Origin: an uncultured Acidobacteriota bacterium
Lineage (GTDB): Bacteria > Acidobacteriota > Thermoanaerobaculia > Gp7-AA8
Assembly: GCA_963822445.1 (NCBI GenBank)
Contig: CAWGHO010000003.1
Location: 416,001-480,000 of the forward strand
Direction of reading: 5' to 3'
DNA: 64,000 nucleotides
The position numbers and the translations under genes were made by a program. Under the pieces are notes generated by a model. That model saw only the letters and a program-made list of their open reading frames with translations. It did no database searches and was not told where the DNA came from. This document shows positions 17,787 through 62,136 of this stretch, piece after piece; position 1 is the stretch's first letter; each line of letters begins with the position of its first letter.

Positions 17787-18809
17787 ATGTCCATGAAAAA
17801 ACTTGCTGTTGCGGCGGCCCTGACGTTGTGCGCGTTCAGCGCGACCGCGAGCAACTTCCGCGGTGCCGATCAGGTTTATATCCCGGCCGCAGGCAACTTC
17901 CAGGGTGCGAGCGGACGCTTCGTGTCCGACGTTTACCTGGCGAACCTCGAGACCGACGTCGACGTCGAGGTTTCGGTGATCTTCCAGCAGCTCGGTGCTG
18001 GCGGCGGAGCGGGCACTGAGTTCAAGAACATCATCACCCTCAGGGCCGGCGAGCGTAAGGAGTACAAGAACTTCCTGCAGAGCGTGCTCGGCCTCACCGC
18101 CGGCAACGAGTTCGGCCAGCTCATCTTCAACGGCTGCCTCAAGGGCGCCAGCTGCGGACCCGAGACGCAGAACACGGACGGCGTCAGCCCCAACTTCAAG
18201 AACATCAGCGCCACCAGCCGCGTGTACGCGATTCCCAACGCCCCGGCCGATCAGCGCCTGACCACCGGTCAGCTCTTCACCGGCATTCCCTGGTATCACT
18301 TCGTCAGCTCCCTCCAGGCCAGCAACGGCCTCGACAAGGTCTTCATCACCGGCCTTCGCCAGACCGGCAACCCCGGAGAGGCGGGCACCTACCGCAGCAA
18401 CATCGGGCTCGTGAACGCGTCGCAGTACTCGCGCTCCACGATTCACGTGACCCTCTACCAGGGCACGACGGCTCTGGCCGACAAGAAGGGTGAGTTCGAG
18501 GTCGTTCTCGAGCCGCTCGGCTCGGTGCAGCAGGGCTTCTCGCAGATGTTCGGCACCGGAGTCACCGGTGAGAACTACTTCGTGATCGTCGAGCAGCGCA
18601 ATCCGGAGCCGGTCGGCGCCGTTCCGTCGACCTGCGTGCAGGGCTGCCCGGCGTTCCTCGCGTACGGCTCGGTGCTCGACAACGGCACCAGCGACGCGAC
18701 GACGCTCGAAGCGCAGTACCTCAAGCCGCTCACCGACGCGGCGATCGTCGTGATCTACCCGGGCAGCAGCTCCGGCAAGGCCGGCGTGCGCCGCAGCGTC
18801 CGCCACTAA
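17787..18809 (+). CDS. Secreted hypothetical protein with C-terminal RRSVRH tail
   Basis: Signal peptide MKKLAVAAALTLCAFSATA; YRSNIGLVN and AYGSVLDNGTSDAT motifs; strongly biased codon usage. Confidence 0.8.
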   Translation: MSMKKLAVAAALTLCAFSATASNFRGADQVYIPAAGNFQGASGRFVSDVYLANLETDVDVEVSVIFQQLGAGGGAGTEFKNIITLRAGERKEYKNFLQSVLGLTAGNEFGQLIFNGCLKGASCGPETQNTDGVSPNFKNISATSRVYAIPNAPADQRLTTGQLFTGIPWYHFVSSLQASNGLDKVFITGLRQTGNPGEAGTYRSNIGLVNASQYSRSTIHVTLYQGTTALADKKGEFEVVLEPLGSVQQGFSQMFGTGVTGENYFVIVEQRNPEPVGAVPSTCVQGCPAFLAYGSVLDNGTSDATTLEAQYLKPLTDAAIVVIYPGSSSGKAGVRRSVRH

Positions 18810-18832
18810 GCCATCGCACTCAGTGATTTGTG

Positions 18833-18864
18833 AGGCCGCGCCATTCCGGCGCGGCCTTTTTTTT
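18833..18864 (+). terminator. Rho-independent terminator
   Basis: aggccgcgcc-attcc-ggcgcggcct followed by a T run. Confidence 0.85.
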
Positions 18865-18913
18865 GCGCCGGGCCGACGACTTTTTTGCGCCTCGCGCAAT
18901 ACATTTCGCCTCG

Positions 18914-19645
18914 ATGGAACCCCGTACCCGACGCGTGCAGCGGGTGCATCTCGCGCAACCGCTACTGGCTCGCCTGGGCACGACCCAGGTGCTCATCGTC
19001 GACGTCAGCGTCCTCGGTGCGCGCGTCGAGCATCACGTTCCACTGGCCGCGGGCGGCAACTCCGCGTTTTCGTTCAAGTGGGAGGACCACGAGATCGTCA
19101 GCCAGTGCCGGATCGTGCGGTCGCGGCTGGAGCGGATGTCCGTCGGCACGGATGGCCTGACCGTTTACCACTCCGGGCTCGAGTTCGAGGACATGGCTGA
19201 CGACACCCGAGGCCGGCTGAAGGCGATGATCGCCCGCTTCATCACCCGCGCGCTGGAAGAGCAGAAGCTGAACGCGCGGGGAGTCGTCCCCCAGCACGAC
19301 GTGAACAAAATGCCCATCTTCCGCTTCGGCGGCCAGCTCACCGCCGACACGAAAGACAAGCGCGCCGTGGTCCCGTCGTATCTGCCCGCCTCCCGGCTCA
19401 TCAAAGAGACGGGCTACATCTGCTACAACCTCGAGAACAACAGTTGGCGCCGCAAGCGCACGCATGACCCCGGTCAGCCGATGGAAGGCTTCACGATTTC
19501 GGCGACCGAGGACCTCACCCAGGCCCAGTTGTTATGCGATGCGTACGTCCGTTCAGACCACTCCGGAAGGCGCCTGATTCAGCTCTTCGCCCAGCTCAGC
19601 ATTGTCGACGGCGAAGGGGTTCAACTGACCCGTTTCGAGCCCTGA
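18914..19645 (+). CDS. PilZ-domain-containing protein
   Basis: RRVQRV (RxxxR) and DVSVLG (DxSxxG) motifs, plus SGLEF. Confidence 0.7.
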   Translation: MEPRTRRVQRVHLAQPLLARLGTTQVLIVDVSVLGARVEHHVPLAAGGNSAFSFKWEDHEIVSQCRIVRSRLERMSVGTDGLTVYHSGLEFEDMADDTRGRLKAMIARFITRALEEQKLNARGVVPQHDVNKMPIFRFGGQLTADTKDKRAVVPSYLPASRLIKETGYICYNLENNSWRRKRTHDPGQPMEGFTISATEDLTQAQLLCDAYVRSDHSGRRLIQLFAQLSIVDGEGVQLTRFEP

Positions 19646-19731
19646 AAAGGGAATCGTTTCCGGCCTGTCCGCGTTGTCCGGAACCGTAGCGCTGTGTTAG
19701 ACTTCGACGGCTTTCGAGCAGCTTTCTTTCG

Positions 19732-19758
19732 AAAGCGGCCTTTCCGGCCGCTTTTTTT
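19732..19758 (+). terminator. Terminator-like hairpin in the rimP leader
   Basis: aaagcggcc-tttcc-ggccgcttt + T run 14 nt before rimP; TGnTAGACT extended -10 at about 19695-19703. Confidence 0.65.
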
Positions 19759-19772
19759 GTTCTAGGGGTGAA

Positions 19773-20240
19773 ATGAGCGGGATTCCCGAACAGGTCGAGC
19801 AGCAGATCCAGCGGATTGTCGAATCCGAAGGGCTGGAGCTCGTCCACATCGACTACAGGAAGCAGGGCCGCGGTTACCTGCTCCGGGTCGATATCGACAA
19901 GGAAGGCGGCGTCAACATCGACGACTGCCAGCTCATTTCGACGCAGATCTCGACGTGGCTCGACGTCGACGATCCCATCCCGGCGGAGTACGAACTGCAG
20001 GTCTCGTCGCCGGGCCTCGACCGGAAGTTCTACAAGACATCGGACTACCAGAAGTTCATCGGCCGTCTCGTGCGCGTGAAGACCAGCAAGGCCATTCGCG
20101 GCCTGCACGTCATCGTCGGCCGGCTGAAGGAGTTCGATGGAGAGCGGGTCGTCGTGACTGATCCGGTGGTCAAGAAAGATCCCGATTACACGATTCCGCT
20201 TGCTGAGATCAAAGAGACACGTCTGGAAGTGGAGATCTAA
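19773..20240 (+). CDS. rimP: Ribosome maturation factor RimP
   Basis: GVNIDDC, YELQVSSPGLDR; first gene of the nusA operon. Confidence 0.95.
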   Translation: MSGIPEQVEQQIQRIVESEGLELVHIDYRKQGRGYLLRVDIDKEGGVNIDDCQLISTQISTWLDVDDPIPAEYELQVSSPGLDRKFYKTSDYQKFIGRLVRVKTSKAIRGLHVIVGRLKEFDGERVVVTDPVVKKDPDYTIPLAEIKETRLEVEI

Positions 20241-20243
20241 CGG

Positions 20244-21806
20244 ATGTTCAACGACAAAGACATCAAGGCGCTGGCGTACGAGAAGTCGATCGACGTCGAT
20301 CGCGTCTACAAGGCCCTCGAGGATGCCCTCGCGACTGCTGCGCGCAAGTATTACAAGACGCGCGAGCCGCTCGAGGCCGTTCTCGATCGCAGCAACGGCG
20401 GAGTGACCATCTTCGCCGTCAAGGAAATCGTCGAAAACGAGGACCAGATCGAGGATCCGCAGGCCCAGTGGCCGCTCGACGTGGCCCAGAAGATCGATCC
20501 CGGCGTGCAGACGGGCGGCATCGTCAAGCTCGACTACATCAGCAAGGAAGTCGTCGACGTCGTGAAGGATCCGAACACGCAGATCCGCACGTACGAGGCG
20601 CAGAAGATCGACCCCGAAGTCGAGCAGGGCGACGAGGTCAAGATCCCCCTGACCACGCCTCCCGCGGACCTCGGCCGCATCGCCGCGCAGTCGGCCAAGC
20701 AGGTCCTGTATCAGAAGGTCCGCGAGGCCGAGCGGGAGAAGGTCTTCAACGAGTTCAAGGACAAGATGGGCGAGCTCGAGAACGGCTACGTGAAGCGTTT
20801 CGAGCGCGGCGACATGATCATCGACCTCAACGGCAAGACCGAGGGGATCATCCCTCGCTCGCAGCAGTCGCGCGCCGAGCGTTACTCGCAGGGCGACCGC
20901 ATCAAGGCCGTGATCGTCGACGTCCACACCCAGCCCAAGGGACCGCAGGTGGTGCTCTCGCGCACCGACCCGCGTCTGCTCATCAAGCTCTTCGAGATGG
21001 AAGTGCCGGAGATCTACGACGGAACGGTCGTGATCAAGGGCGCCGTCCGCGAGCCGGGTGAGCGCGCCAAGATCGCCGTCTCTTCGCGCGAGCGCGACGT
21101 CGATCCGGTCGGCGCCTGCGTCGGCATGAAGGGCTCCCGCGTGCAGTCGATCATCCGCGAGCTTCGCGGCGAGAAGATCGACATCATTCCCTGGCACGAC
21201 GACATCGTGAATTACGCGCAGAACGCCCTGGCGCCTGCGAAGATCACCCGCGTCTCCGTCACCTCCGATGACGGCGCGCACCGTCCGCATCTCGACGTCA
21301 TCGTCGACAACGATCAGCTCTCGCTGGCCATCGGCAAGCGCGGTCTGAACGTCCGTCTGGCCGCCGAGTTGATCGGCGCGAAGATCGACATCAAGTCGGA
21401 AGAGGAAGTGAAGGGCGAAGTCGCCGACGCGCTCGCGGCCATGCTGCAGGAAGCGATGGCCGAGTCGCGCTCCCAGACCGCCGTTCGCGACATCGAGAAC
21501 CTTCCCGCGGAGTGGGCGCAGCTTCTCGAAGACGCCGGCTACGACGATCTCGACTCGGTGATCAACGCCTCGGTCGAGGATCTGACCGCGATCGAAGGCG
21601 TCGATGAGGACATGGCCGCCCAGATGATCGAGATCGCCCGCAAGAGCGAGCAGGTCGATGAGGGCGGGGACGACGACGACGAGTCCGACGAGGACGAAGG
21701 CGAAGACTCCGACGACGATTCCGAAGAGGAAGAAGAAGTCGAAGAAGAAGAAACCGAAGAGGAAGAAGCCTCGGACGAGAAGCAAGCCGAAGCTTCTGTT
21801 GAGTGA
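20244..21806 (+). CDS. nusA: Transcription termination factor NusA
   Basis: GRIAAQSAKQV, DPVGACVGMKGSRV, SLAIGKRGLNVRLA; acidic tail. Confidence 0.96.
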   Translation: MFNDKDIKALAYEKSIDVDRVYKALEDALATAARKYYKTREPLEAVLDRSNGGVTIFAVKEIVENEDQIEDPQAQWPLDVAQKIDPGVQTGGIVKLDYISKEVVDVVKDPNTQIRTYEAQKIDPEVEQGDEVKIPLTTPPADLGRIAAQSAKQVLYQKVREAEREKVFNEFKDKMGELENGYVKRFERGDMIIDLNGKTEGIIPRSQQSRAERYSQGDRIKAVIVDVHTQPKGPQVVLSRTDPRLLIKLFEMEVPEIYDGTVVIKGAVREPGERAKIAVSSRERDVDPVGACVGMKGSRVQSIIRELRGEKIDIIPWHDDIVNYAQNALAPAKITRVSVTSDDGAHRPHLDVIVDNDQLSLAIGKRGLNVRLAAELIGAKIDIKSEEEVKGEVADALAAMLQEAMAESRSQTAVRDIENLPAEWAQLLEDAGYDDLDSVINASVEDLTAIEGVDEDMAAQMIEIARKSEQVDEGGDDDDESDEDEGEDSDDDSEEEEEVEEEETEEEEASDEKQAEASVE

Positions 21807-21874
21807 TGTTGACGCGGAGCGTCACCATGTAAAGCGAATCACGCGGCAGGCGAGCTAGACCCAAGGGAGATTGA

Positions 21875-24790: not shown

Positions 24791-24796
<6 letters not shown>
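21875..24796 (+). CDS. infB: Translation initiation factor IF-2
   Basis: [37 protein letters not shown]. Confidence 0.98.
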
Positions 24797-24896
<100 letters not shown>

Positions 24897-24898
24897 TC

Positions 24899-26142: not shown

Positions 26143-26185
26143 GCGTCTTTCCCGCGCGGCGGATTCTATCGATACTGAACGTCTG

Positions 26186-35953: not shown

Positions 35954-36253
35954 TTATTCTGCGAACTCGCCGGCGACCAGTCGTTGCGCGAAGTTCCGAA
36001 CCGTGAGGATTGACACGCGTGATTTCTCGACGCGATAGATGACTCGATACGCTTTTCGGTATACGACTTCGCGAAACTCGGGCAGGCCGATCTCCGGTAC
36101 GACGCGGCCGGACTCCGGGAACCGTTCCAGCCGATCAGTGACTTCGAACAACCCCTCGAGCCATCGCAAAGCGGCTTCCGGTTTGTCACCCGCGATGAAT
36201 GCGGCCGCGTCGTACGCACGCTCGATTGCGAGCGGCGACCAGACGATTTTCAC
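35954..36253 (-). CDS. RelE/ParE family toxin
   Basis: IVWSPLA...LERFPESGRVVPE...YRVIYRV. Confidence 0.88.
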   Translation of the reverse strand: MKIVWSPLAIERAYDAAAFIAGDKPEAALRWLEGLFEVTDRLERFPESGRVVPEIGLPEFREVVYRKAYRVIYRVEKSRVSILTVRNFAQRLVAGEFAE

Positions 36254-36534
36254 TTCTTGAATCGTCTCCGAAGCTCAGCCTTGGCGTCACGGTTCGCAAC
36301 TGCCTGGCCGGTCTCGATCTGCTGGATTGAAGTCCTGACATCGCTGAGGAGCTCGATCTCATCGACCATCCGTTCGTACTCGCCGACGTCGATCAACACG
36401 GCTGCCGAATGGCCGCGTTGAGTGAGAACCAAGGGCCGCCCGCTGTCCTTGACATGTTCAATGAGCTCCGCGGCGTTCGCGCGGAATTCAGAGACCGGCC
36501 TGATGTCGGTGTTGAGCTTTACCCGTCGACCCAT
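36250..36534 (-). CDS. Phd/YefM family antitoxin
   Basis: IRPVSEFRAN...RPLVLTQRGHSAAVL; overlaps the toxin start. Confidence 0.88.
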   Translation of the reverse strand: MGRRVKLNTDIRPVSEFRANAAELIEHVKDSGRPLVLTQRGHSAAVLIDVGEYERMVDEIELLSDVRTSIQQIETGQAVANRDAKAELRRRFKK

Positions 36535-46614: not shown

Positions 46615-48939
46615 CTACCGAACGGCGCGACGACGCGGTGCGTTGACGACGACGTCCTCCGAGTATGGTCCCGGGCCTCCGTCGTTGAACGCTCGGATCC
46701 GGAACGAGGCGCGAGCGCCACGCTCCGAGAGACGCACCTTGACGGAATGCTCACCGCGGTCAAACCAACGCTCGATTTCGTTCCAGGCGCCGTCACCGAT
46801 GCGTGCTTCCACGCGATAGCCGTTCACGGTGTCCGGAGGCGCGCTCCAGGTCAGGACCACCTCGTCCGGTTCAGGAGCGAAAGCGGCGAGCGTTGGACGC
46901 CCTGCCGGTTCGGGAAGGGCATCAACGCTACCGAGGGCCAGCATCAATCGCGCGCCACCGAAAAACGGTGCGTCGTTGTTGACTTGCGTGACGGCGTACC
47001 CGAGGCGAGACCCGATGGGCACCATCTGCAGTCCGTCGCCCGCGACAGGTTCCTCCCGGGCCGCTTCGGTGGTGGTTCCGCCGCTGTCGAGCGTCACGAA
47101 TCGGCGCGAGGAGCGTGGCCATGGCGATTCGGTCCAGCTCACGGCGACCTGGCCTTCGACCGCCGCGGCCCTGACCTCGCGCGGTTCACCGATGAAAGAC
47201 GTCGCGGGGGCAAGATCGATGACGCCGCCGGAGCGGCGTCCGTCGCGAGAAACGCGCGTCGCGTAAACACCGCGGGGCCACGTACTGGCGAAGACGACGA
47301 CGTAATCCTCACCGGTCCAGACCACGTCCGTCACCGCCGGATAATCGATCTCACCAATGCGCCGAGGGCCTTCGTCCAACAGATCGAGGTTCGGTCCGAG
47401 CCGAAATGCATACACGCGCGGGCTCTCCTGCCAGGCCACGAGCGTGTTGCGGCCATCGGAACCGATCCGCGGATAGCCGGCCCAGTAGCTGCTTGTTCTG
47501 TGGATCTGCACGATGACCGGCACCGAAAACGTGGAATCGACGGTGAACGCGGTGATCTGCTGCCCGCGGGTTCCGACGGCGACGTATCGCGAGCCGTTCC
47601 ACGCCACGTCGGTGATGACGTAATCAGGCCCGGTCAGCCTGACGGGCACACCACGCTGGCGGCCATCGGCGAGCAGGCGATGCGCCACCCATCCCCAGCC
47701 GGGACTATTGCCGACCACGATGAACTCGTCGCCGTTACTGGCCGCGACGATTCCGGTCATCCCGTTGGCGATTACCTGCTCGTTCCACGCACCGGCGTGC
47801 GTGCGGACGCCGGAGAAGACCTGGGAGCCTTCCGTCCAGATGAAGAGCGTCCCGCTCTCCGAGGAGGCGACGGCATGGAGGACCTGGTCCGTGGCGCGGT
47901 ATCCGGTCTCGAGCGGGCGTGCTTCCGTGCGCAGTTCTCGAACGGTTGCGGGTCCATCGAGCGCCGCGGTCAGGAGCATGAGCCGTCCGCCAAACGACAG
48001 AAGTCGAATGCGTGTGGTTCCCGGCGCCGACAGCAACTCGGGAGCCGCCATCATGGCTCCCTTCGTCGAGAGATGGCCGAACAGAATTTGCGTTGCCTCG
48101 CTGCGGTAGGCGACTGCGTATCCGTCGCCGATCCAGGCCAGGCCGCCGAGCCACGACCGTCGCGCGCTATCCACCATGACGATCTCGCCGACCGCGCCGT
48201 TTGTCGTGATCGGCACGGCCACGACGTGGCTCGTTTGTTCGTCGCCAACGGCGAGGTAGTCCTCGCCGTCGGAAGCGATCGCCAGATTCGTCACTCTCAG
48301 GTTCACCTGATTACTCGACCTCGACACTCCGTTCCTGTCGAGAGTCTGAATCGAAACGTTGTAGTAGTTCGACGCCACCACTGCGAATCCATCGCCGTTG
48401 CTGGCGATGTCGTGGTCGCTCGGGTATGGCACCGACAAGTGTTCTCTCCCGATCGGGGTGCCTGCCACGTCCAACGTCAGCGCTTCGAGGCTGGCTCCGC
48501 GCACCACGAGGACGCTGACCGAACCGTTGAAGGCGAGCTTCGGCCCAGAGCCCGCGCTGATGAAGAACTGCTTCCTGACAGGGGTGCCGTCCCGTTCCAC
48601 CAGCGTGCCGGCGATCCCGCTTTCACCCGTGGCCACGACCAGGAAGTGAGTGCCGTTCCAGATCACCGCCGGATCGTTGCGGGTGCCTTCGAGCACCACC
48701 CGTGCGGTTCGCGCGGTCTTGCCGTCCGCGACCCGGGCCATGCTGATCGTGCCTCTCGTGCCGAAGAAGACGTAGGCGTCGACGCCATCGGTCGCGAGTA
48801 CGGCGTTCTCCGCCGCGGCGAGTCCGTAACGCGTGTTTCCCAGGGGAAAAAAGCTGCCGTGGACGCCGTCGGCGGCGCTCGCGACGCCGGATAGAGTAAG
48901 GAAGGCAGTCACGAGAAGGACGTGTAATTTCAATCGCAT
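46615..48939 (-). CDS. Secreted repeat protein with C-terminal fibronectin type III domain and RRRAVR tail
   Basis: Signal peptide; WNGxxY/F repeats; LTWSAP..NGYRVE..FRIRAFNDGGPGPYS FN3 pattern. Confidence 0.8.
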   Translation of the reverse strand: MRLKLHVLLVTAFLTLSGVASAADGVHGSFFPLGNTRYGLAAAENAVLATDGVDAYVFFGTRGTISMARVADGKTARTARVVLEGTRNDPAVIWNGTHFLVVATGESGIAGTLVERDGTPVRKQFFISAGSGPKLAFNGSVSVLVVRGASLEALTLDVAGTPIGREHLSVPYPSDHDIASNGDGFAVVASNYYNVSIQTLDRNGVSRSSNQVNLRVTNLAIASDGEDYLAVGDEQTSHVVAVPITTNGAVGEIVMVDSARRSWLGGLAWIGDGYAVAYRSEATQILFGHLSTKGAMMAAPELLSAPGTTRIRLLSFGGRLMLLTAALDGPATVRELRTEARPLETGYRATDQVLHAVASSESGTLFIWTEGSQVFSGVRTHAGAWNEQVIANGMTGIVAASNGDEFIVVGNSPGWGWVAHRLLADGRQRGVPVRLTGPDYVITDVAWNGSRYVAVGTRGQQITAFTVDSTFSVPVIVQIHRTSSYWAGYPRIGSDGRNTLVAWQESPRVYAFRLGPNLDLLDEGPRRIGEIDYPAVTDVVWTGEDYVVVFASTWPRGVYATRVSRDGRRSGGVIDLAPATSFIGEPREVRAAAVEGQVAVSWTESPWPRSSRRFVTLDSGGTTTEAAREEPVAGDGLQMVPIGSRLGYAVTQVNNDAPFFGGARLMLALGSVDALPEPAGRPTLAAFAPEPDEVVLTWSAPPDTVNGYRVEARIGDGAWNEIERWFDRGEHSVKVRLSERGARASFRIRAFNDGGPGPYSEDVVVNAPRRRAVR

Positions 48940-53181: not shown

Positions 53182-53300
53182 GGGGCCTCCGGCGGGCCGG
53201 CACGGCCGGCAGCGCTGATGTTGGCGTAAACGCGACCCGCGCTGGCTACCGCGAGCTCGGCAGAAGGCACAATCAACGCTGCCGGCCGTGCCGGCCCGCC
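53182..53300. repeat. REP-like 33-bp inverted repeat whose right arm is interrupted by the IS (remainder at 54842-54850)
   Basis: 53182-53214 is the exact reverse complement of 53277-53300 joined to 54842-54850. Confidence 0.9.
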
Positions 53301-53560: not shown

Positions 53561-53572
53561 AGGGAGGGTGTG

Positions 53573-54817
53573 ATGAGCGAGTTCGAGTTTGGGGCGTTGG
53601 TGGGACTGGATTGGGGTGACACATCGCACGAGGTGGCTCTTTGGGACGAGCAACAGCAGACGTGCACGAACGAGCGCATCGAGCACACGCCTGCGGCTCT
53701 GCGCGCATGGATCGAAGGCTCGGATGAAACGCCTCACGATACCGGGCTGCACTGCGTGGGTTGATCGGATACAACGTGACGAACGGATAGCCGCTGAGCG
53801 CGTCGAAGACCGCGCCGCGGGACTGCTCGATGGCCACGGCGATCGGTGCCCCGCCGAAGCGCGCCTGCAGCGCTTTCGAAAGACGATCCGACCGACGCGG
53901 CGTCCTTGCTCGACCTGCTCCGTAAGCACCGCAACGAGCTGCGCCCGTTCATCGCCGACGACGCTTCTACGCGTCTGCTGCGGCTTCTGACCGAGGATCG
54001 GCGGGAGCTCGTCGATCAGAGGACGCAACACGTCCAACGCATGACCGATCGGCTCAAGACGTACTACCCGCAGGCGCTCCGGTGGGCCGGCGCGTTGATT
54101 ACGGCGCAGGCCTGTGACTTCCTCGAACGCTGGCCGACGCTCGAGGCCATCCAAAGGGCTCGGCCGTCCGCGATACGGAGGTTCTATGCGGGTCATCATC
54201 ACGCGGCCGCGTGGATCGACCAGAAGCTCGCCGAGATCCGTTCAGAGGTCGCGTTCCACGACGATCAGGTCACCACTGACGCTGCCGTGCTGCTGATCGG
54301 AAGCGAGGTTGCGCAGATCCGGGCCCTCAACGCGAGCATCGCCACGTACGACCAGAAGATCTCGGCGGCGTTCGCCGCCCACCAGGACGCGTCGATCTTC
54401 GCGAGCTTCCCTGGCGCCGGCCAACAGCTCGCGCCGCGGCTCGCCGCCGCCTTCGGGACCGATCGCAAGCGCTTCGGCAGCGCCGTCAACGTCGCCACCC
54501 GAAGCGGCATCGCCCCGGTTCTCCGCCGGAGCGGCAAAACGGCGGTCGTGCACATGCGCTGGGCCTGTCCGAAGTTCCTGCGTCAGACGTTCCATGAGTA
54601 CGCCCGCGTGTCGATCGGTCAGTCCGAATGGGCTCGAGCCTTCTACAAGCAGCAACGCGCGCGCGGACACAGCCACCACGAGGCTATCCGCACGCTCGCT
54701 TACCGCTGGATCCGCGTCCTTTACGCCTGCTGGAACAATCGCACCGTCTACGACGAAGCTCTCTATCTGCGGCAGCTCGCCACGCGAGGCTCAACCCTCG
54801 CCACAGCTGCTGCCTGA
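53573..54817 (+). pseudogene. IS110 transposase/recombinase disrupted by an internal inversion (53717-53873)
   Basis: GLDWG, KDDPTDA, SFPGAG and SGIAPV..SGK on +; AIEQSRG..INP on -; re-inversion gives an uninterrupted 414-aa ORF. Confidence 0.9.
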
Positions 54818-54863
54818 CTTGACAGGAAGGCTCAGATGTCCGGAGGCCCCACGGTCGTTCTCT

Positions 54864-55631
54864 CTAGCCCCGCACCCGCTGACCGCCCGTGTACACGTTG
54901 AAGCGCCCGTCGCGCACGAATCCGAGGAGCGTGAGGTTGAATTCGCTCGCGAGCTCGATCGCCAGCGAGGACGGTGCACCGACCGCGGCCAGGACCGCGA
55001 TGCGCGCGACCAGCGCCTTCTGCACGATCTCGAAACTGGTCCGGCCGCTGACGACCATCACCCGATCGGCGATGCTCGCGCCTTCGCGGAAAAACGAGCC
55101 GATCACTTTGTCGACGGCGTTGTGCCGGCCGATGTCCTCACGAATGCGGACGAGCTCACCGGTTGTCGTGAAGATCCCGGCGGCGTGAATCGCACCGGTG
55201 GCGTCGAATGCCTTCTGTGCGGCGCGGAGTGTTTCGGGCAGCGACGAGATGATGGCGGGGGAGACCCGCGCGTTCGATTCGATTGGCGTGAGGTGCACGC
55301 GCAACGCGTCGATCGAGACCTTGCCGCACACACCGCACGACGACGTCGAATAGAAATGGCGTTGCAGGCGCTGCAGATCGAGTTTTTCACGGGCCTCTAC
55401 GCGCACGATGTTCGATGAGCCCCAGTGACGGATCGACACGATTTCCGTGGCTGCTCTGAGAATCGATTCGGTGAACAGGAACCCCGCGGCCAGGTCGAAG
55501 TCCTCGCCGGGCGTTCGCAGGGTTACCGAGACGGGCTTCTCGCCGACACGGATCTCCAGCGGTTCCTCGACGGCGACGATGTCCTCGGCTTCGGTGGGGA
55601 CGCCTGCTTCGTATCGGGTGATGCGCGTCAT
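54864..55631 (-). CDS. fdhD: Formate dehydrogenase accessory sulfurtransferase FdhD
   Basis: EEPLEI, SSCGVCGK, EDIGRHNAVDK, SGRTSFE, APSSLA. Confidence 0.95.
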   Translation of the reverse strand: MTRITRYEAGVPTEAEDIVAVEEPLEIRVGEKPVSVTLRTPGEDFDLAAGFLFTESILRAATEIVSIRHWGSSNIVRVEAREKLDLQRLQRHFYSTSSCGVCGKVSIDALRVHLTPIESNARVSPAIISSLPETLRAAQKAFDATGAIHAAGIFTTTGELVRIREDIGRHNAVDKVIGSFFREGASIADRVMVVSGRTSFEIVQKALVARIAVLAAVGAPSSLAIELASEFNLTLLGFVRDGRFNVYTGGQRVRG

Positions 55632-55672
55632 CGTTCGACATGCTAGTGGAGCACTCCATTAAACTCCCGCCC

Positions 55673-58624
55673 ATGTGGCCGATCCTCCGCCAACTCCTGG
55701 GTGACAAGAACGCCGCAGTCAGCGAACGCACCCGCAACCTGCAGCCGAAAAACGAGAACACCAGCGTCGCGCGATCGGTCTGCCCGTACTGCGCGGTCGG
55801 CTGCGGACAGCTGGTCTTTCACCGCGGCGATCGCGTGGTCAGCATCGAAGGCGATCCCGCATCGCCCATCTCCCGCGGCCACCTCTGTCCCAAAGGCGCC
55901 GCGAGCTACGAGCTGGTCACGCACGCCGGTCGAGCCACGCGAGTGAAATACCGCGCACCGCGATCGCGCAAGTGGACGGAGCTCGATCTCGAGACGGCGG
56001 TGGACATGGTCGCCGACCGCATCTGGGCGACGCGCGAGCGCACCTTCGACGAAAAGCACAACCACACCACCGGCATCGCCCACCTCGGCGGCGCGACGCT
56101 CGACATCGAAGAGAACTACCTCATCAAGAAGCTCTTCACCGCCGGACTGGGGATGGTCTGCCTGAGCAATCAGGCGCGGATATGACACAGCTCCACGGTG
56201 CCCGGTCTGGGTACCACTTACGGCCGCGGCGGCGCCACGACCGCGCAGCAGGACCTCGCCAATTCCGACGCCATTCTGATCATGGGCTCGTCGATGGCCG
56301 AGAACCATCCAGTCGGATTCCAGTGGGTGATCGAAGCGCGCGAAAAGAATCACGCGAAGGTCATCCATGTCGACCCGCGATTCACTCGCACGTCGGCCAT
56401 GGCCGATTACTGGCTCCCACTGCGCGCCGGCAGCGACCTGATCTTCCTCGGCGCGATGATCAACTACGTCATCGCGAACGACCGCTGGTTCCGCGAGTAC
56501 GTCGTGCGCTACACGAATGCGGCGGTGATCGTCCGCGATGATTTCGTCGATACCGAGGATCTCGGTGGCGTTTTTTCGGGTCCGGAGACGTGGTTGTATC
56601 CGGACGCGCCGTCGGGATCGCGCGACACCGGCCATCGCGGCGAAGCACAAGGCGCGCCGCAAACGCCGCCCGATCCACCGCGCGACGAAACGCTGCAGCA
56701 TCCGCGATGCGTGTTCCAGGTGCTGAAGCGCCACTTCGCGCGGTACACGCCGGAGATGGTCGAGCGCTCGTGCGGGATTCCGGCGGCATCGTTTCTCGAG
56801 GTAGCGGACGTCTTCACGAGCGCTTCCGGACCGGAGAAGACCGCGTCGATCTGTTACGCCGTCGGCTGGACGCAGCATTCGAGCGGCGTGCAGACCATCC
56901 GCGCCGCGGCCATCCTTCAATTACTGCTCGGCAACGTCGGCCGTCCCGGCGGAGGAATCATGGCCCTCCGCGGACACGCGTCGATTCAGGGCTCGACGGA
57001 CATCCCCACGCTCTACGACATCCTGCCCGGCTACCTGCCCATGCCCACGTCGAGCGAGCCGTCCCTTGGCGACTACCTGAAGAAACACAAAGCGGCGAAG
57101 GGCTGGTGGTTCAACGTCGACAACTACCTCGTCTCGCTGCTGAAGGCTTACTACGGCGATGAGGCGAAACGCGAAAACGACTTCGGATACGCGTGGCTGC
57201 CGCGGCTCACCGGCGATCACTCCTACTTCGGCTACTGGCTGGACATGGCCGACGGCAAGCTCGAAGGGCTGATGGTCATGGGCCAAAACCCGGCGGTCGG
57301 CTCGCCGAACGCGAAGCTCGAGCGCGACGCGATGAAGAAGCTGAAGTGGATGGTTGTGCGGGAGATGGTCGAGACCGAAACGGCGATGTTCTGGCAGGAC
57401 GGGCCGGATGACGTCGAGACCGAGGTGTTCTTCTTCCCCGCGGCATCCCATGTCGAGAAGGACGGAACGTTCACCAACACCCAGCGCCTGCTGCAGTGGC
57501 GCGAGAAAGCGGTCGAGCCGCCCGGCGACGCCCGGAGTGAGCTGCAATTCATGGTCGCCCTCGGCCGCAAGCTCAAGGCCAAGGCGACGGACGCGCCGCG
57601 CGATGCGGCGCTCCGCGCGTTGACGTGGGATTACGCGGATGAAGATGCGGAGGAAGTGCTGCGGGAGATTCATGGCGGCCCGCGCATCAAGCACTTCGGC
57701 GAATTGAAAAACGACGGCTCGACCTACTGCGGCTGCTGGATCTACTCCGGCGTCTTCGACGGCGAGAACAAAGCAAACAACCGCGCGCCGAAAGGCCGCC
57801 ACGCGCACGGCTGGGGCTACGCGTGGCCGCTCGATCGCCGCATCCTCTACAACCGCGCCTCCGCGCGGCCGGACGGCAGACCATGGAGCGAGCGCAAGGC
57901 CCTGGTCTGGTGGGATGAAGAAAAGCGCGAGTGGGTCGGTCACGACGTGCCCGACTTCACTCGGGGAAAAGCACCCGACTATGTTCCAACCGCGGAGAGC
58001 GGCGGCGATGAAGCGCTGGCCGGCGACGCGCCGTTCATCATGCATCCCGACGGCATGGGCTGGTTGTGGGTTCCATCGGGCCTGAAGGACGGACCGTTGC
58101 CGGCGCATTACGAGCCGCTCGAATCGAACATCCGCAATCCGCTGTACGAACAGCAATCCAATCCCGCGGCTCTCCGTTTCGAGCGACCCGATAATCCGTA
58201 CGCCTCGTCACCCGACGCGCGATTCCCGTTCGTCCTCACCACCTATCGCCTGACTGAGCATCACACCGCCGGTGGCATGTCCCGCACGCTCTCGCATCTC
58301 GCGGAGCTTCAGCCCGAGCTCTTCGCGGAGATCTCGCCGGAGCTCGCGACGCAGGTCGGCGTGTCCAACGGTGAGTTCGTGACGATCTCCACGGCCCGCG
58401 GCGCGATCAATGCGCGTGCGCTCGTGACGACGCGCATGCCCTCGCTGCAGATTGACGGACAGACCGTGCACCAGGTCGGCCTGCCGTATCACTGGGGCGA
58501 TCGCGGTCTGGTGAAAGGGGACGTCGTCAACGATCTCCTGGCGATCTCCGAAGAGCCGAACGTGAAGATCTTCGAGTCGAAGGGGCTGACCTGCAATCTG
58601 ACGCGGAGTGCGTCAGCGGAATAG
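55673..58624 (+). CDS. Selenocysteine-containing formate dehydrogenase alpha subunit (FdnG/FdoG type)
   Basis: CPYCAVGC...LCPKG; in-frame TGA at 56183-56185 in the NQARI-U-HSSTV context; same frame continues to 58624. Confidence 0.92.
56183..56225 (+). promoter_or_regulatory. Sec UGA codon with bacterial SECIS hairpin
   Basis: TGA cacagctccac ggtgccc ggtct gggtacc: stem with a GT-containing apical loop 11 nt after the UGA. Confidence 0.8.
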
Positions 58625-59146: not shown

Positions 59147-59149
59147 GAT

Positions 59150-59998
59150 TTACCAGCGCGTCGGGTACGTTCCGAGGATCGTTACCGCGTCCGCCATCGA
59201 TCGGAGATTGTCCAGCGCCCGCGAAACCGGCTCTTCCGTCGCCTTGCCGATGACGTCGAGGTAGAAGCCGTACTCCCAGGGGCGGCCTTCGATCGGGCGC
59301 GACTCGATCTTCGACAGATCGATGTCCACCAGCGCGAATGCGCCGAGGGCGCGGAAGAGCGAGCCGGGCTTGTTCGCGATCCGCAGAAGAATCGACGTCT
59401 TCCAGCGGCGGGTCAGGGACTCGGCTGACGGTCTGACGTTTGAATCGGGCAGGGCAGCGAGAAAGAAGCGGGTGAAGTTCTGACTGTTGTCCTCGATCCC
59501 GGCCTCGATCACGCTTCCGCCATACAGCTCCGCGGCGCGGACGGACGCGATCGCGGCTTCGTCCTCGAGTCCACGTTCCATCACCAACCGGACCGCGCCG
59601 GCGGTGTCGTGAACGGGCACTGGTTCCAGGTTCGGATGGGCGCGCAGGAAGCGTCCGCACTGCGCGAGTGCGACAGGGTGGGAGTAGACCCGCCGCAGTT
59701 CGCGTGCGTTCGTCGCCGGTGGCGCGATGAGGTTGTGCGCGATGCGCAGGTTCGTTTCACCGCGAACGGTCAGCTGCGACTCGAGCAGCAGGTCGTAGTT
59801 CCGGTGGATCGATCCGGCGAGGCTGTTCTCGATCGGCGCGACGCAGCAATCGGCCGTTCCGAAGCGCACGGCGTCGAACATCTCTTCGAACGATCGAAAG
59901 GAAAGCGCCGTCATCGGCTCGCCGATGAGCCGTTCCGCGGCCGATTCGCTGAATGCGCCTGGTTCCCCCTGGTAAGCAACTCGAACCCGTTCGATCAT
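59150..59998 (-). CDS. pheA: Prephenate dehydratase (PDT plus ACT domain)
   Basis: AYQGEPGAFSE, PIENSLAG, SHPVALAQC, NFTRF, LSKIESRP. Confidence 0.94.
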   Translation of the reverse strand: MIERVRVAYQGEPGAFSESAAERLIGEPMTALSFRSFEEMFDAVRFGTADCCVAPIENSLAGSIHRNYDLLLESQLTVRGETNLRIAHNLIAPPATNARELRRVYSHPVALAQCGRFLRAHPNLEPVPVHDTAGAVRLVMERGLEDEAAIASVRAAELYGGSVIEAGIEDNSQNFTRFFLAALPDSNVRPSAESLTRRWKTSILLRIANKPGSLFRALGAFALVDIDLSKIESRPIEGRPWEYGFYLDVIGKATEEPVSRALDNLRSMADAVTILGTYPTRW

Positions 59999-60010
59999 CC
60001 GTTCCTCCTG

Positions 60011-60050
60011 AAAAGCAAAAGGCCCGCTCCTGTGTGATCAGGAGCGGGCC
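60011..60050 (-). terminator. Attenuator terminator of the pheA leader
   Basis: Minus strand ggcccgctcctg-atcaca-caggagcgggcc-ttttgctttt, ending 12 nt before pheA. Confidence 0.85.
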
Positions 60051-60075
60051 GCTGGATCGCGTTGGTGTGCTGGTC

Positions 60076-60162
60076 TTAGCGGGCGATCAAGTGCGCTCCT
60101 GTGCGGCCGAAGCCGAAAAATCGGCCGGCAAACAGAAACAGCGCAAACGATCGATGACGCAT
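60076..60162 (-). CDS. Phe-rich leader peptide (PheL-like)
   Basis: MRHRSFALFLFAGRFFGFGRTGAHLIAR: 6 Phe in 28 aa, directly upstream of the terminator and pheA. Confidence 0.8.
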   Translation of the reverse strand: MRHRSFALFLFAGRFFGFGRTGAHLIAR

Positions 60163-60213
60163 GGACGGTGAGAATAGCACGACGTCCGCGCGGCTTGCCC
60201 CGTACTACAGGGC

Positions 60214-62136
60214 GTGCGTGCCCCGGTGCTCCTCGTTGCCCTTCTCCTCGTCTCGTCCATCCACGCTGAGATCCCGATCTCGCGGCCCGACATCGTTCCT
60301 CTCGATCGCGCCGCCTGGTCGGCCGATCCGCCTTCGGTTGCGTCCGGTGACGGCTTCCTCGTCGTCTGGTCCGAGCGGCTGTTCGGCGGCTGGCCCGGGC
60401 CGGTGAAGCTTCGCACGTACGACGACGACGGCACGCCGCGCCAGCCGCTCTCGATCGAGCTCGGCCATGGTCACTCGCCCCACGCATTCTGGAACGGCAG
60501 CGAATACGTGGTCGTCTTCGCGCTGCCGATCTCCCGGTTCGGAAGTCCCACGCCGCTGCCGTCAGTCGTGGCTGTGCGCGTGCGCGCGGACGGGACGATC
60601 GTCGAAGACTCCCGCGTGACGCTACTTTCCTCTCGATCGAGCGCCGGCATCGCCGACGTGGCCTGGGACGGCATGAACGCGCTCGTCGCCATCGCCTATC
60701 CAACTCCTTCGCAACTCCTTCGCCTCGATCGCAACGGAAACCTGCTCGAGCAAACGACGCTCGACGCGCAACCGACGGCGCTCGAGACGAAAGCGGGCGG
60801 AGGGTTTTTCGTGCTGCCCCTGGATCAGGGCGAGGCAGTCGCGCGCGGCGACGATCGATTCGCCGTGCTCGATCATCAGCAGAACGGCGTGACGGAGGTG
60901 ATCCTCCTCGATGCCGCGGGCAGCGAGCTCGAACGGTTCGTGTTGTCGAGCAACGCCGGCTGGCAGAGCGCGATCGTGTGGGATGGTCGCGCGTGGGTCG
61001 CCTCGTACACGCAGAACGGCGCACTCTGCACGGCGCGTTTCACTTCTTCGTCGGACGTCGACCGAACCTGTGACGCGCAGACGAACGCGTACGGCCCGGC
61101 GCTCGCCGTCGGCGGCCGAGGGATCTTCAAGGCCTGGACGAATGACGGTCAGGTGCTGACCGATTCCGGGCTCGCATCGACAGCCTGGTCTTCCGCGGTC
61201 CTGCCCGCGGCGGTCATCGACGAGACGGGCGTGCTCGCGGCCTGGGTCGAGGCCGGTCGGATTCGCATCGGCGGCATTGCCAACGATCGCACGCCGCGGC
61301 CCGAAGAGACTGTCGGCGGCGCTGTGAATTACGACGCGCCCGTTCTGTCGCGAGCGGGCAATCAAACGCTGCTGGCCTGGATCGACGACAAACCGCGGGC
61401 GGTCATCATCGGCTCCGACGGCAAGCCTGTCTCCGATCCGATCGAACTGCCGGAGATGCACTCCGCGCCCGCCATCGCAGCGCGCGGCGACGAATGGGTG
61501 CTGGCCTGGTACACGCCGAACGGCATCCAGTCCTCGCGACTCACGCGCGACCTCGAGCTCGTCGGCTTCGAAGAATTCGGCGGTACCTCGATTCAGGATC
61601 CTCCGCGTATCGCGGCAACCGCGACCGGCTATCTCCTGGCCTGGACGGAACATGAAAACGGACGATCGCGTGTGGTGGTCGAGCCGCTCGATGCGAACGG
61701 CCGGCGGACGGTGGGTGGGATTCACATCGCCGACGACGTCACCGCGCCTTCTTCTCTCGCCGTCGAGTGTGGCCCGGTGACCTGCGTCGTCACGTGGCAG
61801 GCCGGACAAGGCGAACGCTGGTTCGCGCTGGTTCGTCACGACGGCACGCAGGTCTCGGCCAATCGCGTTTTCGAGTCGAAGACGGCGGGGCAGGGCACCG
61901 TCGTCGACGCTCTCCACGACGCCTCCTTCCGCATCTACTTCGGCAACACCGTCATGCCGGTCTCACGAGCCGGCGAGCCCGGACTGGCCATGCCCTGGCA
62001 TTCGGCGCCGGTCGCGATCGGCAGTGTGGTCACCTGGCGCGGGCGCGTCACCGCCGTCTACTCGCGACCGAACGGCGGAACGAGCCAGGTCTTCGCGCGC
62101 GAATTCGTATCGCGCGGCCGCTCCATCCGTCACTGA
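60214..62136 (+). CDS. Secreted repeat protein with C-terminal RGRSIRH tail
   Basis: Signal peptide; ASGDGFLVVW / WNGSEYVVVF repeats similar to the 46615-48939 protein. Confidence 0.78.
   Translation: MRAPVLLVALLLVSSIHAEIPISRPDIVPLDRAAWSADPPSVASGDGFLVVWSERLFGGWPGPVKLRTYDDDGTPRQPLSIELGHGHSPHAFWNGSEYVVVFALPISRFGSPTPLPSVVAVRVRADGTIVEDSRVTLLSSRSSAGIADVAWDGMNALVAIAYPTPSQLLRLDRNGNLLEQTTLDAQPTALETKAGGGFFVLPLDQGEAVARGDDRFAVLDHQQNGVTEVILLDAAGSELERFVLSSNAGWQSAIVWDGRAWVASYTQNGALCTARFTSSSDVDRTCDAQTNAYGPALAVGGRGIFKAWTNDGQVLTDSGLASTAWSSAVLPAAVIDETGVLAAWVEAGRIRIGGIANDRTPRPEETVGGAVNYDAPVLSRAGNQTLLAWIDDKPRAVIIGSDGKPVSDPIELPEMHSAPAIAARGDEWVLAWYTPNGIQSSRLTRDLELVGFEEFGGTSIQDPPRIAATATGYLLAWTEHENGRSRVVVEPLDANGRRTVGGIHIADDVTAPSSLAVECGPVTCVVTWQAGQGERWFALVRHDGTQVSANRVFESKTAGQGTVVDALHDASFRIYFGNTVMPVSRAGEPGLAMPWHSAPVAIGSVVTWRGRVTAVYSRPNGGTSQVFAREFVSRGRSIRH

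Follow-up and report, generated by a model that had tools for sequence, protein, structure and literature searches.

Three proteins encoded in the window analyzed here, a 64,000-nucleotide stretch of the genome of an uncultured soil Thermoanaerobaculia acidobacterium, carry signal-peptide-like N termini and end in a short Arg-rich sequence, which raises the question of whether these endings constitute a C-terminal signal. The predicted endings were confirmed by re-translation of the three open reading frames, and the features concerned are as follows.

17787..18809, + strand: protein 1 gene, ORF of 340 amino acids from the ATG at 17787, ending ...GKAGVRRSVRH
17787..17852, + strand: signal-peptide-like N terminus of protein 1, MSMKKLAVAAALTLCAFSATAS (translation; by eye and in-house heuristic)
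18786..18806, + strand: Arg tail of protein 1, VRRSVRH; stop codon TAA (re-translation)
46615..48939, - strand: protein 2 gene, ORF of 774 amino acids, ending ...NAPRRRAVR
46618..46638, - strand: Arg tail of protein 2, PRRRAVR; stop codon TAG (re-translation)
48874..48939, - strand: signal-peptide-like N terminus of protein 2, MRLKLHVLLVTAFLTLSGVASA (translation)
60214..62136, + strand: protein 3 gene, ORF of 640 amino acids, ending ...VSRGRSIRH
60214..60270, + strand: signal-peptide-like N terminus of protein 3, VRAPVLLVALLLVSSIHAE (translation; GTG start)
62110..62133, + strand: Arg tail of protein 3, SRGRSIRH; stop codon TGA (re-translation)

Protein 1 is comprised of a signal peptide, two tandem β-sandwich domains, a disordered linker, and the Arg tail. 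An AlphaFold2 model of the protein has a mean pLDDT of 85.7, falling below 50 for residues 325–340. No Pfam or NCBIfam family was matched by the β-sandwich domains, and the fold gave weak matches only, to tandem β-sandwich proteins such as RbmA and arrestins. Protein 2 contains a signal peptide, a repeat (propeller-like) region, and an fn3 domain at residues 690–764 (Pfam match, E = 1.3e-5) ahead of its tail, and protein 3 a signal peptide and a repeat region with weak similarity to that of protein 2, also followed by the tail. Protein 1 is, as originally proposed, unrelated to the other two, which are themselves weakly alike at the level of the shared repeat (best BLASTP E = 7e-4).

Genome-wide Occurrence of the Arg Tail

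The 6.0-Mb, 94.7%-complete genome was scanned using 5198 crude gene calls from an in-house codon-usage caller, not a standard annotation. Approximately 40 predicted proteins across the whole genome end in a Pro-rich linker followed by [RK]-R-R-[AST]-[VIA]-R-(H/K/R), reproducing on a larger scale the pattern first noticed on three, and the 40 tail proteins fall into 27 BLAST-unrelated clusters. The expression put forward in the original prediction, R.R[AS][VI]R.?$, matched 20 of the crude calls and recovered proteins 2 and 3 but missed protein 1, because V occupies the position of the first R. The pattern [KR]R[AST][VI]R.?$ was found at 24 C termini in the genome compared with an expectation of 0.16, derived from 28 internal copies of [KR]R[AST][VI]R in 1,775,224 residues, an enrichment of ∼150-fold, and the longer [KR]RR[AST][VI]R has 22 C-terminal and four internal copies. 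No model describing the tail was found in Pfam or NCBIfam, nor any paper describing it in the literature searched.

Such endings could arise by chance, from the Arg-rich composition of a high-GC genome, or from a conserved DNA element lying over gene ends. In keeping with such an origin, C termini in this genome are generally enriched about four-fold in basic triplets (RRR, 106 observed and 26 expected), and two clearly cytoplasmic proteins have look-alike ends. However, the enrichment of the motif far exceeds this background; among the crude gene calls the reversed motif is present at 0 C termini compared with 43 internal copies, and the motif shifted to 3–50 residues before the end occurs 0–1 times. 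Between four and six different Arg codons are used at each tail Arg position of the 40 tail proteins, the Ala, Ser, and Thr positions use eight different codons in all, and the stops that follow are TGA (20), TAG (15), and TAA (5), with DNA 3' of the stops that is unrelated as judged by eye. Variation of the Arg, Ala, and Ser codons, and of the stop codons among all three types, shows selection at the protein level; together with the unrelated downstream DNA and conservation of the tail in orthologues at 28–68% identity, it argues against such an origin. This explanation is therefore considered refuted.

The 10 residues preceding the tail are 17.5% Pro, compared with 5.2% proteome-wide. Within the tail, R is much favored over K and the residues keep a fixed order, the consensus having [AST] in 44/47, V in 29/47, and [VIA] in 47/47 sequences, the last by construction of the expression. 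No hydrophobic helix was found near the C terminus, the highest 17-residue Kyte-Doolittle mean in the last 50 residues of all 40 proteins being 1.52; the claim that no transmembrane helix precedes the tail holds for 40/40 tail proteins by hydropathy windows.

Exported Proteins as Carriers of the Tail

The carriers are mostly signal-peptide, and hence exported, proteins. A motif no commoner at the C termini of secreted than of cytoplasmic proteins had been named as the outcome that would overturn the original prediction, and the reverse was observed: using crude signal-peptide calls (an in-house heuristic), 24 of 33 tail proteins have a signal-peptide-like N terminus without further helices, compared with 987 of 4368 others (odds ratio 9.1, p = 1.6e-9). 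At least three of the nine tail proteins missed gain a signal peptide upstream of a mis-called start. Tat-type N termini are present, by eye, on some tailed database homologues (P0054, P0060, P0073, and P0085). Were the tail to replace a lipid anchor, mutual exclusion with lipoprotein signals would be expected; these were seen in 0/31 tail proteins and 110/1003 others (p = 0.067), which is a trend only and was counted against the idea.

The cargo includes four subtilases, a matrixin, a copper amine oxidase, and two GSDH proteins, together with PhoX-like, DMFA2_C-like, DUF4185, Kelch, di-haem peroxidase-like, PL8 lyase, and DUF3500 proteins, several of which have a PKD, fn3, TIG, or Calx-beta domain directly before the tail. 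The two cytoplasmic look-alikes are, by eye, a sigma-factor-like protein ending in RRSVRRS and a thioredoxin-domain-like protein ending in RRAIRRG.

Conservation and Replacement of the Tail in Homologues

In orthologues the tail is kept while the linker drifts. All 29 complete same-genus orthologues of protein 1 end in the loose form R[SATLVP][VIAL][RHN].{0,2}$ (26/26 after leaving out the source genome and the unpublished genomes G002 and G025), and 24 of the 29 end in [RK]R[SATLVP][VIA]R.{0,2}$. The tail is present in 6/6 database homologues of protein 2 at 28–54% identity (loose expression), and R-x-R-[AS]-[VIL]-R-[RHP] ends 14/14 database homologues of protein 3 at 42–51% identity, all of which also fit the loose expression. 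The orthologue loci belong to Thermoanaerobaculia, in agreement with the original mention of similar endings in proteins of that class.

Homologues outside this lineage have a membrane helix, T9SS domain, dockerin, or different lineage-specific tail at the same site. Among the best 120 DMFA2_C-like proteins (query included), a type I C-terminal transmembrane anchor alternates with the Arg tail: 29 end instead in a hydrophobic helix plus basic residues, compared with 47 that have a strict tail, or 68 when the 21 loose tails are included. Unlike this anchor the Arg tail cannot span a membrane, and it could touch one only peripherally, through electrostatic attraction. Among the 22 GSDH homologues scanned in other lineages, Por_Secre_tail forms the C terminus of 11 and a dockerin that of three. 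The S8 proteases of sister families have conserved endings of their own, namely ...WVEQE on nine tandem genes in the sister lineage L090 and ...DGFE[ST]GD..W.. in families f7 and f8.

Comparison with Known C-terminal Signals

The tail was originally said to fit none of the LPXTG, PEP-CTERM, GlyGly-CTERM, and T9SS signals, and this is upheld by its lack of both a membrane helix and a folded sorting domain. The signals of LPXTG/sortase, PEP-CTERM/exosortase, GlyGly-CTERM/rhombosortase, MYXO-CTERM/myxosortase, and IPTL-CTERM are also short signatures at the extreme C terminus, and these tripartite signals, like the Arg tail, occur dozens of times per genome on otherwise unrelated signal-peptide proteins and include a terminal Arg cluster. 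The Arg tail, which looks like this third part standing alone, has no hydrophobic transmembrane segment and no cognate enzyme was found for it; without that segment, the membrane-embedded enzymes that read tripartite signals would have nothing to hold. The T9SS CTD (Por_Secre_tail, PF18962) occupies the same site on GSDH homologues and is found on similar cargo (proteases, lyases, and oxidoreductases with Ig-like domains), but is a folded domain of ∼75 residues, compared with 7–8 disordered residues for the Arg tail, and T9SS belongs to a different phylum group. No PF18962 match was found on the tail proteins.

A helix-free, positively charged, Arg-rich extreme C terminus is also the transport signal of T4SS (VirB/D4) substrates, and the tail might be a translocation signal of the type found in Agrobacterium. 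The likeness is superficial: those substrates are cytoplasmic proteins lacking a signal peptide, the tail carriers have one, and the near-complete genome yielded no match to VirB4 (PF03135) or to a coupling protein of the VirD4 type (PF02534), making this explanation barely credible.

The tail could alternatively be a processing site, a short pro-piece cut off by a basic-residue-specific protease such as one of the ∼30 subtilase matches, or a degradation tag read by a tail-specific protease that controls enzyme levels. RRR followed by a small and a β-branched residue resembles dibasic or kexin-type cleavage sites, and the genome has 30 Peptidase_S8 matches and one P_proprotein domain. However, the P-domain does not track the tail, it is hard to see why three or four residues should be trimmed from the members of 27 unrelated families, and internal [KR]RR[AST][VI]R is neither enriched nor visibly avoided, with four copies in 1.78 million residues against ∼3 expected from a rough composition estimate. 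The helices and sorting domains that replace the tail in homologues point to localization instead, and processing or degradation is considered improbable.

Possible Sorting Signal or Envelope Retention

That the Arg tail is a real localization tag is likely, and its mode of action is the less certain part. It may serve as a genuine signal for sorting or secretion, recognized by a dedicated machine of the periplasm or outer membrane. Such a machine could be a transpeptidase/protease that cuts inside RRR|[AS][VI]R and couples the protein to a molecule at the cell surface, or a transporter that moves tagged proteins across the outer membrane, and the tail would then belong to a set of lineage-specific labels that are interchangeable in Thermoanaerobaculia. 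The fixed residue order and conserved non-basic positions are consistent with this, as are the other tails at the same site of sister-lineage S8 proteases and the T9SS CTDs on GSDH homologues elsewhere, although the latter fit an anchor as well as a secretion signal. The tail has six of the seven features given by Haft for small C-terminal sorting signals (10.1101/2023.06.07.544157), the hydrophobic helix alone being missing.

Against a sorting machine, no candidate was found. P_proprotein (kexin-type) is present in 55/61 relatives, including families without Arg tails, and was not found in f12, whose tails are RRRL-type. Peptidase_C11 was looked for and not found, a single Peptidase_C25 domain lies within a 3417-residue ORF, exosortase gave one weak partial match only (E = 1e-10), and no transporter or sortase is evident in the 145-kb region holding nine of the tail genes. 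Moreover, to our knowledge all sorting enzymes of this kind require a membrane helix in the signal. A sorting signal is considered rather unlikely, if still a serious contender.

Retention by binding, as opposed to recognition by an enzyme of sorting or secretion, is the reading we tentatively prefer, at somewhat less than even odds. The consensus x-R-R-R-[AS]-V-R-x matches the heparin-binding, or Cardin-Weintraub, polyanion-binding pattern XBBBXXBX as defined in PMC12445077, and an Arg-rich segment of Neisseria NHBA is described in PMC5472700 as binding heparin and extracellular DNA electrostatically. Such heparin-binding and polybasic motifs lie in the interior of individual proteins and bind host or matrix, whereas the Arg tail is a terminal tag on 27 unrelated families and, unlike them, conserves its non-basic positions also; these positions, the preference for R over K, and the fixed order argue for specific protein recognition over plain charge attraction.

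Collectively, these data suggest that the three endings in the window are copies of one genome-wide, helix-free C-terminal tag, which consists of a short, proline-enriched, disordered linker and [R/K]-R(or x)-R-[A/S/T]-[V/I/A]-R, often with a further basic residue or His. Sec or Tat signal peptides would take the tail proteins out of the cytoplasm, after which the exposed, extended Arg motif could hold the enzyme on the envelope non-covalently. Its binding partner would be either an anionic component of the envelope (lipid or LPS phosphates or acidic polysaccharide) or a cognate acidic receptor, and the motif may in this way stand in for the C-terminal membrane helix found in sister proteins. 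No reading machinery, whether a transporter, protease, or receptor tracking the tail, was found, and we infer the function from context; of the lineage-specific C-terminal signal originally proposed, the motif, the lineage restriction, and the exported cargo stand, and the role in export, surface attachment, or processing is putative. Most likely, the tag places or holds proteins in the cell envelope after export, and a seven-residue Arg-rich tail on ∼40 unrelated exported proteins appears to be a novel and very short label for addressing or anchoring.

Three Exported Proteins Share an Arg-rich C-terminal Tail

Re-translation of the window reproduced the three open reading frames of the original prediction, 17787–18809 (+), 46615–48939 (−), and 60214–62136 (+) (proteins 1, 2, and 3, respectively), with the same tails and N termini, the latter resembling a signal peptide in each case. 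All three proteins end in the Arg tail, a short motif of the general form [RK]-R-R-[AST]-[VIA]-R-(H/K/R), located behind a Pro-rich linker and lacking a membrane helix.

Arg tails of the three proteins (positions in the window)
18786–18806 (+), Arg tail of protein 1, VRRSVRH
46618–46638 (−), Arg tail of protein 2, PRRRAVR
62110–62133 (+), Arg tail of protein 3, SRGRSIRH

The sole Pfam match among the three proteins is an fn3 domain just upstream of the tail in protein 2, and no NCBIfam model matched any of them. Protein 1 had been described as unrelated to the other two, which was borne out; the kinship between proteins 2 and 3 proved weak and confined to the level of repeats (E 7e-4). The predicted structure of protein 1 (mean pLDDT 85.7) consists of two β-sandwich domains followed by the linker and tail (residues 325–340), where pLDDT falls below 50, and a fold search produced only weak matches, to tandem β-sandwich proteins. 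The end of the second domain (..AYGS.LDN.T.D.TT.E..) recurs at the extreme C terminus of a 1727-residue S8 protein from another family (locus L096, genome G056) and is also C-terminal in a database homologue of GSDH (P0234); it is a common, unnamed β domain of exoproteins in Thermoanaerobaculia.

The Tail Is Concentrated at C Termini throughout the Genome

The assembly of the genome under study (G000) comprises 6.0 Mb in 3 contigs at 64.5% GC, in which 5198 genes were called with a crude custom codon-usage caller; the window spans G000:C3:416001–480000. The pattern put forward in the original prediction, R.R[AS][VI]R.?$, gave 20 matches among these calls. The related pattern [KR]R[AST][VI]R.?$ was found at 24 C termini, where its 28 internal occurrences in 1,775,224 residues would predict 0.16. 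The longer [KR]RR[AST][VI]R occurs 22 times at the C terminus and 4 times internally, and the reversed motif 0 and 43 times, respectively, with only 0–1 occurrences of the motif at 3–50 residues from the C terminus. This enrichment of ∼150-fold compares with a general enrichment of basic triplets at the C termini of the proteome of ∼4-fold. Short degenerate DNA patterns for the motif, run on G000, were noisy (e.g. 61 matches versus 46 for the reversed control).

A relaxed pattern, which accepts Ala as the hydrophobic residue and as many as three residues after the core, gave 47 matches. Eight were dropped, including two that look cytoplasmic (by eye, one resembles a sigma factor and the other a thioredoxin-domain protein), one with a membrane helix ahead of it, and others that were short or degenerate; a further three went when Pro was barred from the small position, and a looser length limit restored four, giving 40 tail proteins, or ∼0.8% of the proteome. 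With the last 15 residues removed, these 40 fall into 27 clusters unrelated by BLAST. The consensus is [A/P]-[P/G]-[R/K]-R-R-[A/S/T]-[V/A/I]-R, where Arg occupies motif positions 0, 1, and 4 in 39, 47, and 37 of the 47 matches, position 2 is a small residue and position 3 is Val, Ile, or Ala (positions 1–3 being partly set by the pattern itself). The consensus is followed by nothing in 18 of the 47, by His in 12, by Lys and Arg in four each, and by other residues in the remainder; 0, 1, 2, or 3 residues lie past the last core Arg in 18, 23, 4, and 2 cases, respectively. A similar motif was also seen behind a membrane helix, in a 616-residue protein with a signal peptide (G000:C2:905724–907574 (+)) that ends in a hydrophobic helix and a terminal YRRRAVA, and likewise in a DMFA2_C-like homologue (P0048), where a helix is followed by RRSRPVRRS.

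Selection Acts on the Protein, and the Carriers Are Exported

Selection on the Arg tail is at the level of protein and not of DNA, as seen from the variation in codons and stops and from the unrelated DNA that follows. Each Arg position uses four to six different Arg codons, the Ala/Ser/Thr position uses eight codons, the stops of the 40 tail genes are TGA (20), TAG (15), and TAA (5), and the sequences downstream of these stops are, by eye, unrelated.

The proposed link between tail and export was upheld: a signal peptide with no further helix was found in 24 of 33 tail proteins as compared with 987 of 4368 others (odds ratio 9.1, p = 1.6e-9), where signal peptides and lipoboxes were called with custom heuristics, not SignalP, at a background rate of 22.6%. 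In at least three of the nine misses, a signal peptide appears once the frame is extended upstream; a frameshifted subtilase accounts for another, and two appear cytoplasmic. Over the last 50 residues of the 40 tail proteins, hydropathy (Kyte-Doolittle mean of 17 residues) peaks at 1.52 (median 0.79), and 9% of the whole proteome reaches 1.8 or more; in the ten residues before the tail, Pro is enriched 3.4-fold. Lipoprotein signals were found in none of 31 tail proteins versus 110 of 1003 others, a mutual exclusion that is only a trend (p = 0.067).

A Pfam survey of 27 carriers and neighboring ones revealed a cargo of Peptidase_S8 (four, plus one frameshifted), GSDH (two, one also with a dockerin), and Kelch (two), together with matrixin, copper amine oxidase, PhoX-like, DMFA2_C-like, DUF4185, di-haem peroxidase-like, PL8 lyase, DUF3500, and CarboxypepD_reg repeats. 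Many carriers have a PKD, fn3, TIG, or Calx-beta domain directly ahead of the tail, and one such domain scored 29.4 bits against the cut-off of 30 for the NCBIfam model "choice-of-anchor Z". The frameshifted subtilase gene (G000:C3:393392–394773 (+)) is split into two overlapping open reading frames, the first comprising an I9 propeptide and the start of the S8 domain, the second the rest of S8 and the Arg tail KKRRRSARQ; the split is a frameshift or a sequencing error.

The Tail Is Conserved among Relatives

Matches to protein 1 were found in 52 of the 61 genomes searched, G000 included. Each of the 29 complete orthologue loci closes with R[SATLVP][VIAL][RHN] followed by 0–2 residues, and 24 of the 29 fit a stricter [RK]R..R form; their best-matching segments share 50–67% identity with protein 1. 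When G000, G002 (L056), and G025 (L048), the last two unpublished, are set aside, the numbers become 26 of 26 and 21 of 26. A single-protein scan gave 11 orthologue loci, 10 titled Thermoanaerobaculia bacterium and 1 Acidobacteriota bacterium. The tail is kept in all six database homologues of protein 2 (28–54% identity), and all 14 of protein 3 (42–51% identity) end in R-x-R-[AS]-[VIL]-R-[RHP]; the orthologue sets preserve R-x-R-[AS]-[VI]-R.

Inside the class, protein 1 homologues of families f5 and f9 end directly after the domain, with no tail, whereas f8 and f12 homologues finish with RRP[VL] and a further 3–7 residues, the last often Arg. For the S8 proteases the endings are RRRL plus 3–4 residues (f12), PRRHAVRRPGSH (f2), and DRRRLTSRR (f3). 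Among 119 other best matches to the DMFA2_C-like protein, a strict pattern fits 48 and a loose one 53, and the stretch that joins the tail to the domain's last helix is variable in length. Homologues of this protein at E ≤ 1e-60 were found in 7 of the 201 Acidobacteriota genomes sampled; a sister genus supplies one, which ends in HPRRRAMH. Five are from outside the class: three are tail-less, one has a terminal helix, and one (unpublished G107) is cut by a contig end. The best 150 GSDH representatives gave no strict and two loose matches.

Other Endings Take the Place of the Tail

In the best 120 DMFA2_C-like proteins, 29 have a terminal hydrophobic helix where others have the tail, and of 22 GSDH homologues scanned, 11 end in Por_Secre_tail and three in a dockerin. 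The Arg tail therefore occupies a slot that is filled elsewhere by anchors or sorting domains.

Other families of the class carry further endings of their own. S8 proteases of f10 and f11 end in DGFxWSD..INVWVEQE, as seen in nine tandem genes at one locus (L090, G047:C190:275500–294208) and at L092, L094, and L099 in two further genomes of these families, and those of f7 and f8 end in DGFE[ST]GD..W.., the ending ..DGFE[ST]GD.S.WS.. being seen on S8 and other exoproteins at L106 (G043) and L108 (G048); no DGF-type tail was found in G000. Large exoproteins of f5 and f9 (1246–2210 residues; L117, L118, L120, L121, L122, and L125, in G057, G045, and G049) have Cys-containing tails that finish in ...TCP or ...NCP (e.g. 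..SSWG.S.SGQRNGTT.SG.CG...RDN.GTCP or ..C.AHGNC(L)P), which looks like another lineage-specific ending, and the Arg tail was found on none of about a dozen such proteins (one entry being of f6, from unpublished G042).

G000 itself has a second, unrelated tag of ∼34 residues, ..LGL.A..FTDP.LTAG.T.IKA(A/V)H(I/V).ELR.GV(K/Q/R), at the very end of at least 16 signal-peptide proteins of 351–2252 residues. It lies within five genes of 6 of 36 Arg-tail genes and is also found on the GSDH homologues P0129, P0190, and P0191.

Examples of genes with the ∼34-residue tag (G000)
C1:457737–462395 (−), tag gene
C3:943346 (−), tag gene
C1:653233–655026 (+), tag gene
C2:1004494–1006491 (+), tag gene
C3:646166–648472 (−), tag gene

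Comparison with Known Sorting Systems

We know of no small C-terminal sorting signal described in prokaryotes that does not need a membrane helix or a folded domain. Neither a description of the Arg tail nor a paper pairing Thermoanaerobaculia with "sorting signal" was found in full-text searches of the literature, and no Pfam or NCBIfam model matches it; such a disordered tail of seven residues would escape current annotation models.

The closest comparison is with the small tripartite signals, for which the Methods of 10.1101/2023.06.07.544157 list seven criteria. Six apply to the Arg tail and the one missing is the transmembrane segment. As in tripartite signals, the tail is at the extreme C terminus (the motif ends within 0–3 residues of the stop in all 47 matches), is present in multiple copies per genome (∼40 proteins), has a short conserved signature, ends in a basic cluster of two to five residues that are mostly Arg, is carried mostly by proteins with a signal peptide, and joins many pairs that are dissimilar outside the signal (27 clusters among 40). 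Tripartite signals, however, require a strongly hydrophobic stretch of transmembrane length, which the tail proteins lack (maximum hydropathy 1.52). NCBIfam sorting-signal models found nothing over the terminal residues of 28 C-terminal pieces at E values up to 10. In the search for a cognate sorting enzyme, Exosortase_EpsH gave only a weak partial match (E 1e-10) to a 245-residue open reading frame of G000.

The type IX signal is a folded domain of ∼75 residues, and PF18962 and TIGR04183 matched neither 30 tail proteins nor 28 C-terminal pieces of 80 residues (E ≤ 10). A search of the whole genome with these models was likewise without a match and is uninformative, since the control genomes were also silent. 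Substrates of VirB/D4 type IV systems are cytoplasmic and have no signal peptide, in contrast to the Arg-tail carriers, and VirB4 (PF03135) and VirD4 (PF02534) were not found in G000, which is 94.7% complete. A Tat signal was rejected because the motif lies at the C terminus and is not followed by a hydrophobic region; some carriers have, by eye, a separate Tat-type N terminus. A PDZ-type ligand was also rejected because there is no fixed register to the carboxylate, with 0–3 trailing residues in the 47 matches; in other families of the class 3–7 residues follow RR-x-[VL].

Taken together, these results show the Arg tail to be a terminal label that is conserved and exposed, is carried by exported proteins, and is exchangeable for anchors and sorting domains; its function we infer. 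It would most plausibly, although we favor this only tentatively, hold the enzyme non-covalently on an anionic surface of the envelope or on a receptor. Such retention would be suited by the preference for Arg, the flexible linker, the tolerance of 0–3 trailing residues, the alternation with a membrane helix, and the fit of the consensus x-[RK]-R-R-[AST]-[VIA]-R-x to the Cardin-Weintraub pattern XBBBXXBX, as that pattern is defined in PMC12445077. The Arg-rich segment of NHBA is a documented case of binding by charge (PMC5472700).

Search for a Machine That May Read the Tail

A dedicated machine, either a sorting enzyme or a transporter, could instead read the tail, which we rank second and regard as less likely. 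The fixed order of residues and the conserved small and β-branched positions would suit recognition by a specific protein, but no convincing candidate was found in G000. The motif resembles kexin/furin-type cleavage sites; the P_proprotein domain does not appear to follow the tail, since 55 of 61 relatives have it irrespective of tail type and it was not found in the two f12 genomes. Peptidase_C11 was not found in G000, and a single Peptidase_C25 domain (the gingipain/PorU family; E 2.9e-76) lies at G000:C3:704992–705999 (+), within an open frame of 3417 residues. The two secretins of the genome are uninformative, and the only recurrent neighbor family of the tail genes was rejected, since it shares the unrelated ∼34-residue tag.

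Nine Arg-tail genes lie within ∼146 kb (C3:349,784–495,730, window included), where a genome-wide density of 40 in 6 Mb would predict about one, although this cluster is a post hoc observation. The region is annotated with signaling proteins, c-di-GMP enzymes, and a GT2/GH26/TPR polysaccharide locus, and no obvious sortase or transporter was found in it. The window also holds a split molybdopterin oxidoreductase on the plus strand (an Fe4S4-domain frame at 55646–56182 and a Molybdopterin-domain frame at 56198–58621) adjoining an FdhD gene (54867–55631 (−)), a layout that would be expected if a selenocysteine codon (an in-frame TGA) interrupted a formate dehydrogenase gene, as well as a ParE/Phd toxin-antitoxin pair and an IS110-family transposase gene (35957–36534 (−) and 53906–54814 (+)).

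Implications

We tentatively favor non-covalent retention, and if the tail is such an anchor, it would give a soil lineage that is abundant but uncultured a cheap means of keeping its exo-enzymes at the cell; a tail recognized by a machine would instead imply a sorting or secretion pathway not yet described. The tail provides a simple rule for predicting the enzymes that work at the envelope in Thermoanaerobaculia, and a short portable tag that may be tried on reporter proteins. It is conceivable, if rather unlikely, that the tail is the first minimal C-terminal sorting signal, free of helix and domain, in a two-membrane bacterium, its seven disordered residues being recognized in the periplasm by an undescribed machine that would position dozens of enzymes on the cell surface or link them to it, and one of at least four mutually replaceable, lineage-specific labels in Thermoanaerobaculia, the others being ...WVEQE, DGFE[ST]GD, the Cys-containing ...TCP, and, in G000, ...KA(A/V)H(I/V)xELR. 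If so, these bacteria would have a modular tagging system with fast-evolving pairs of tag and reader.
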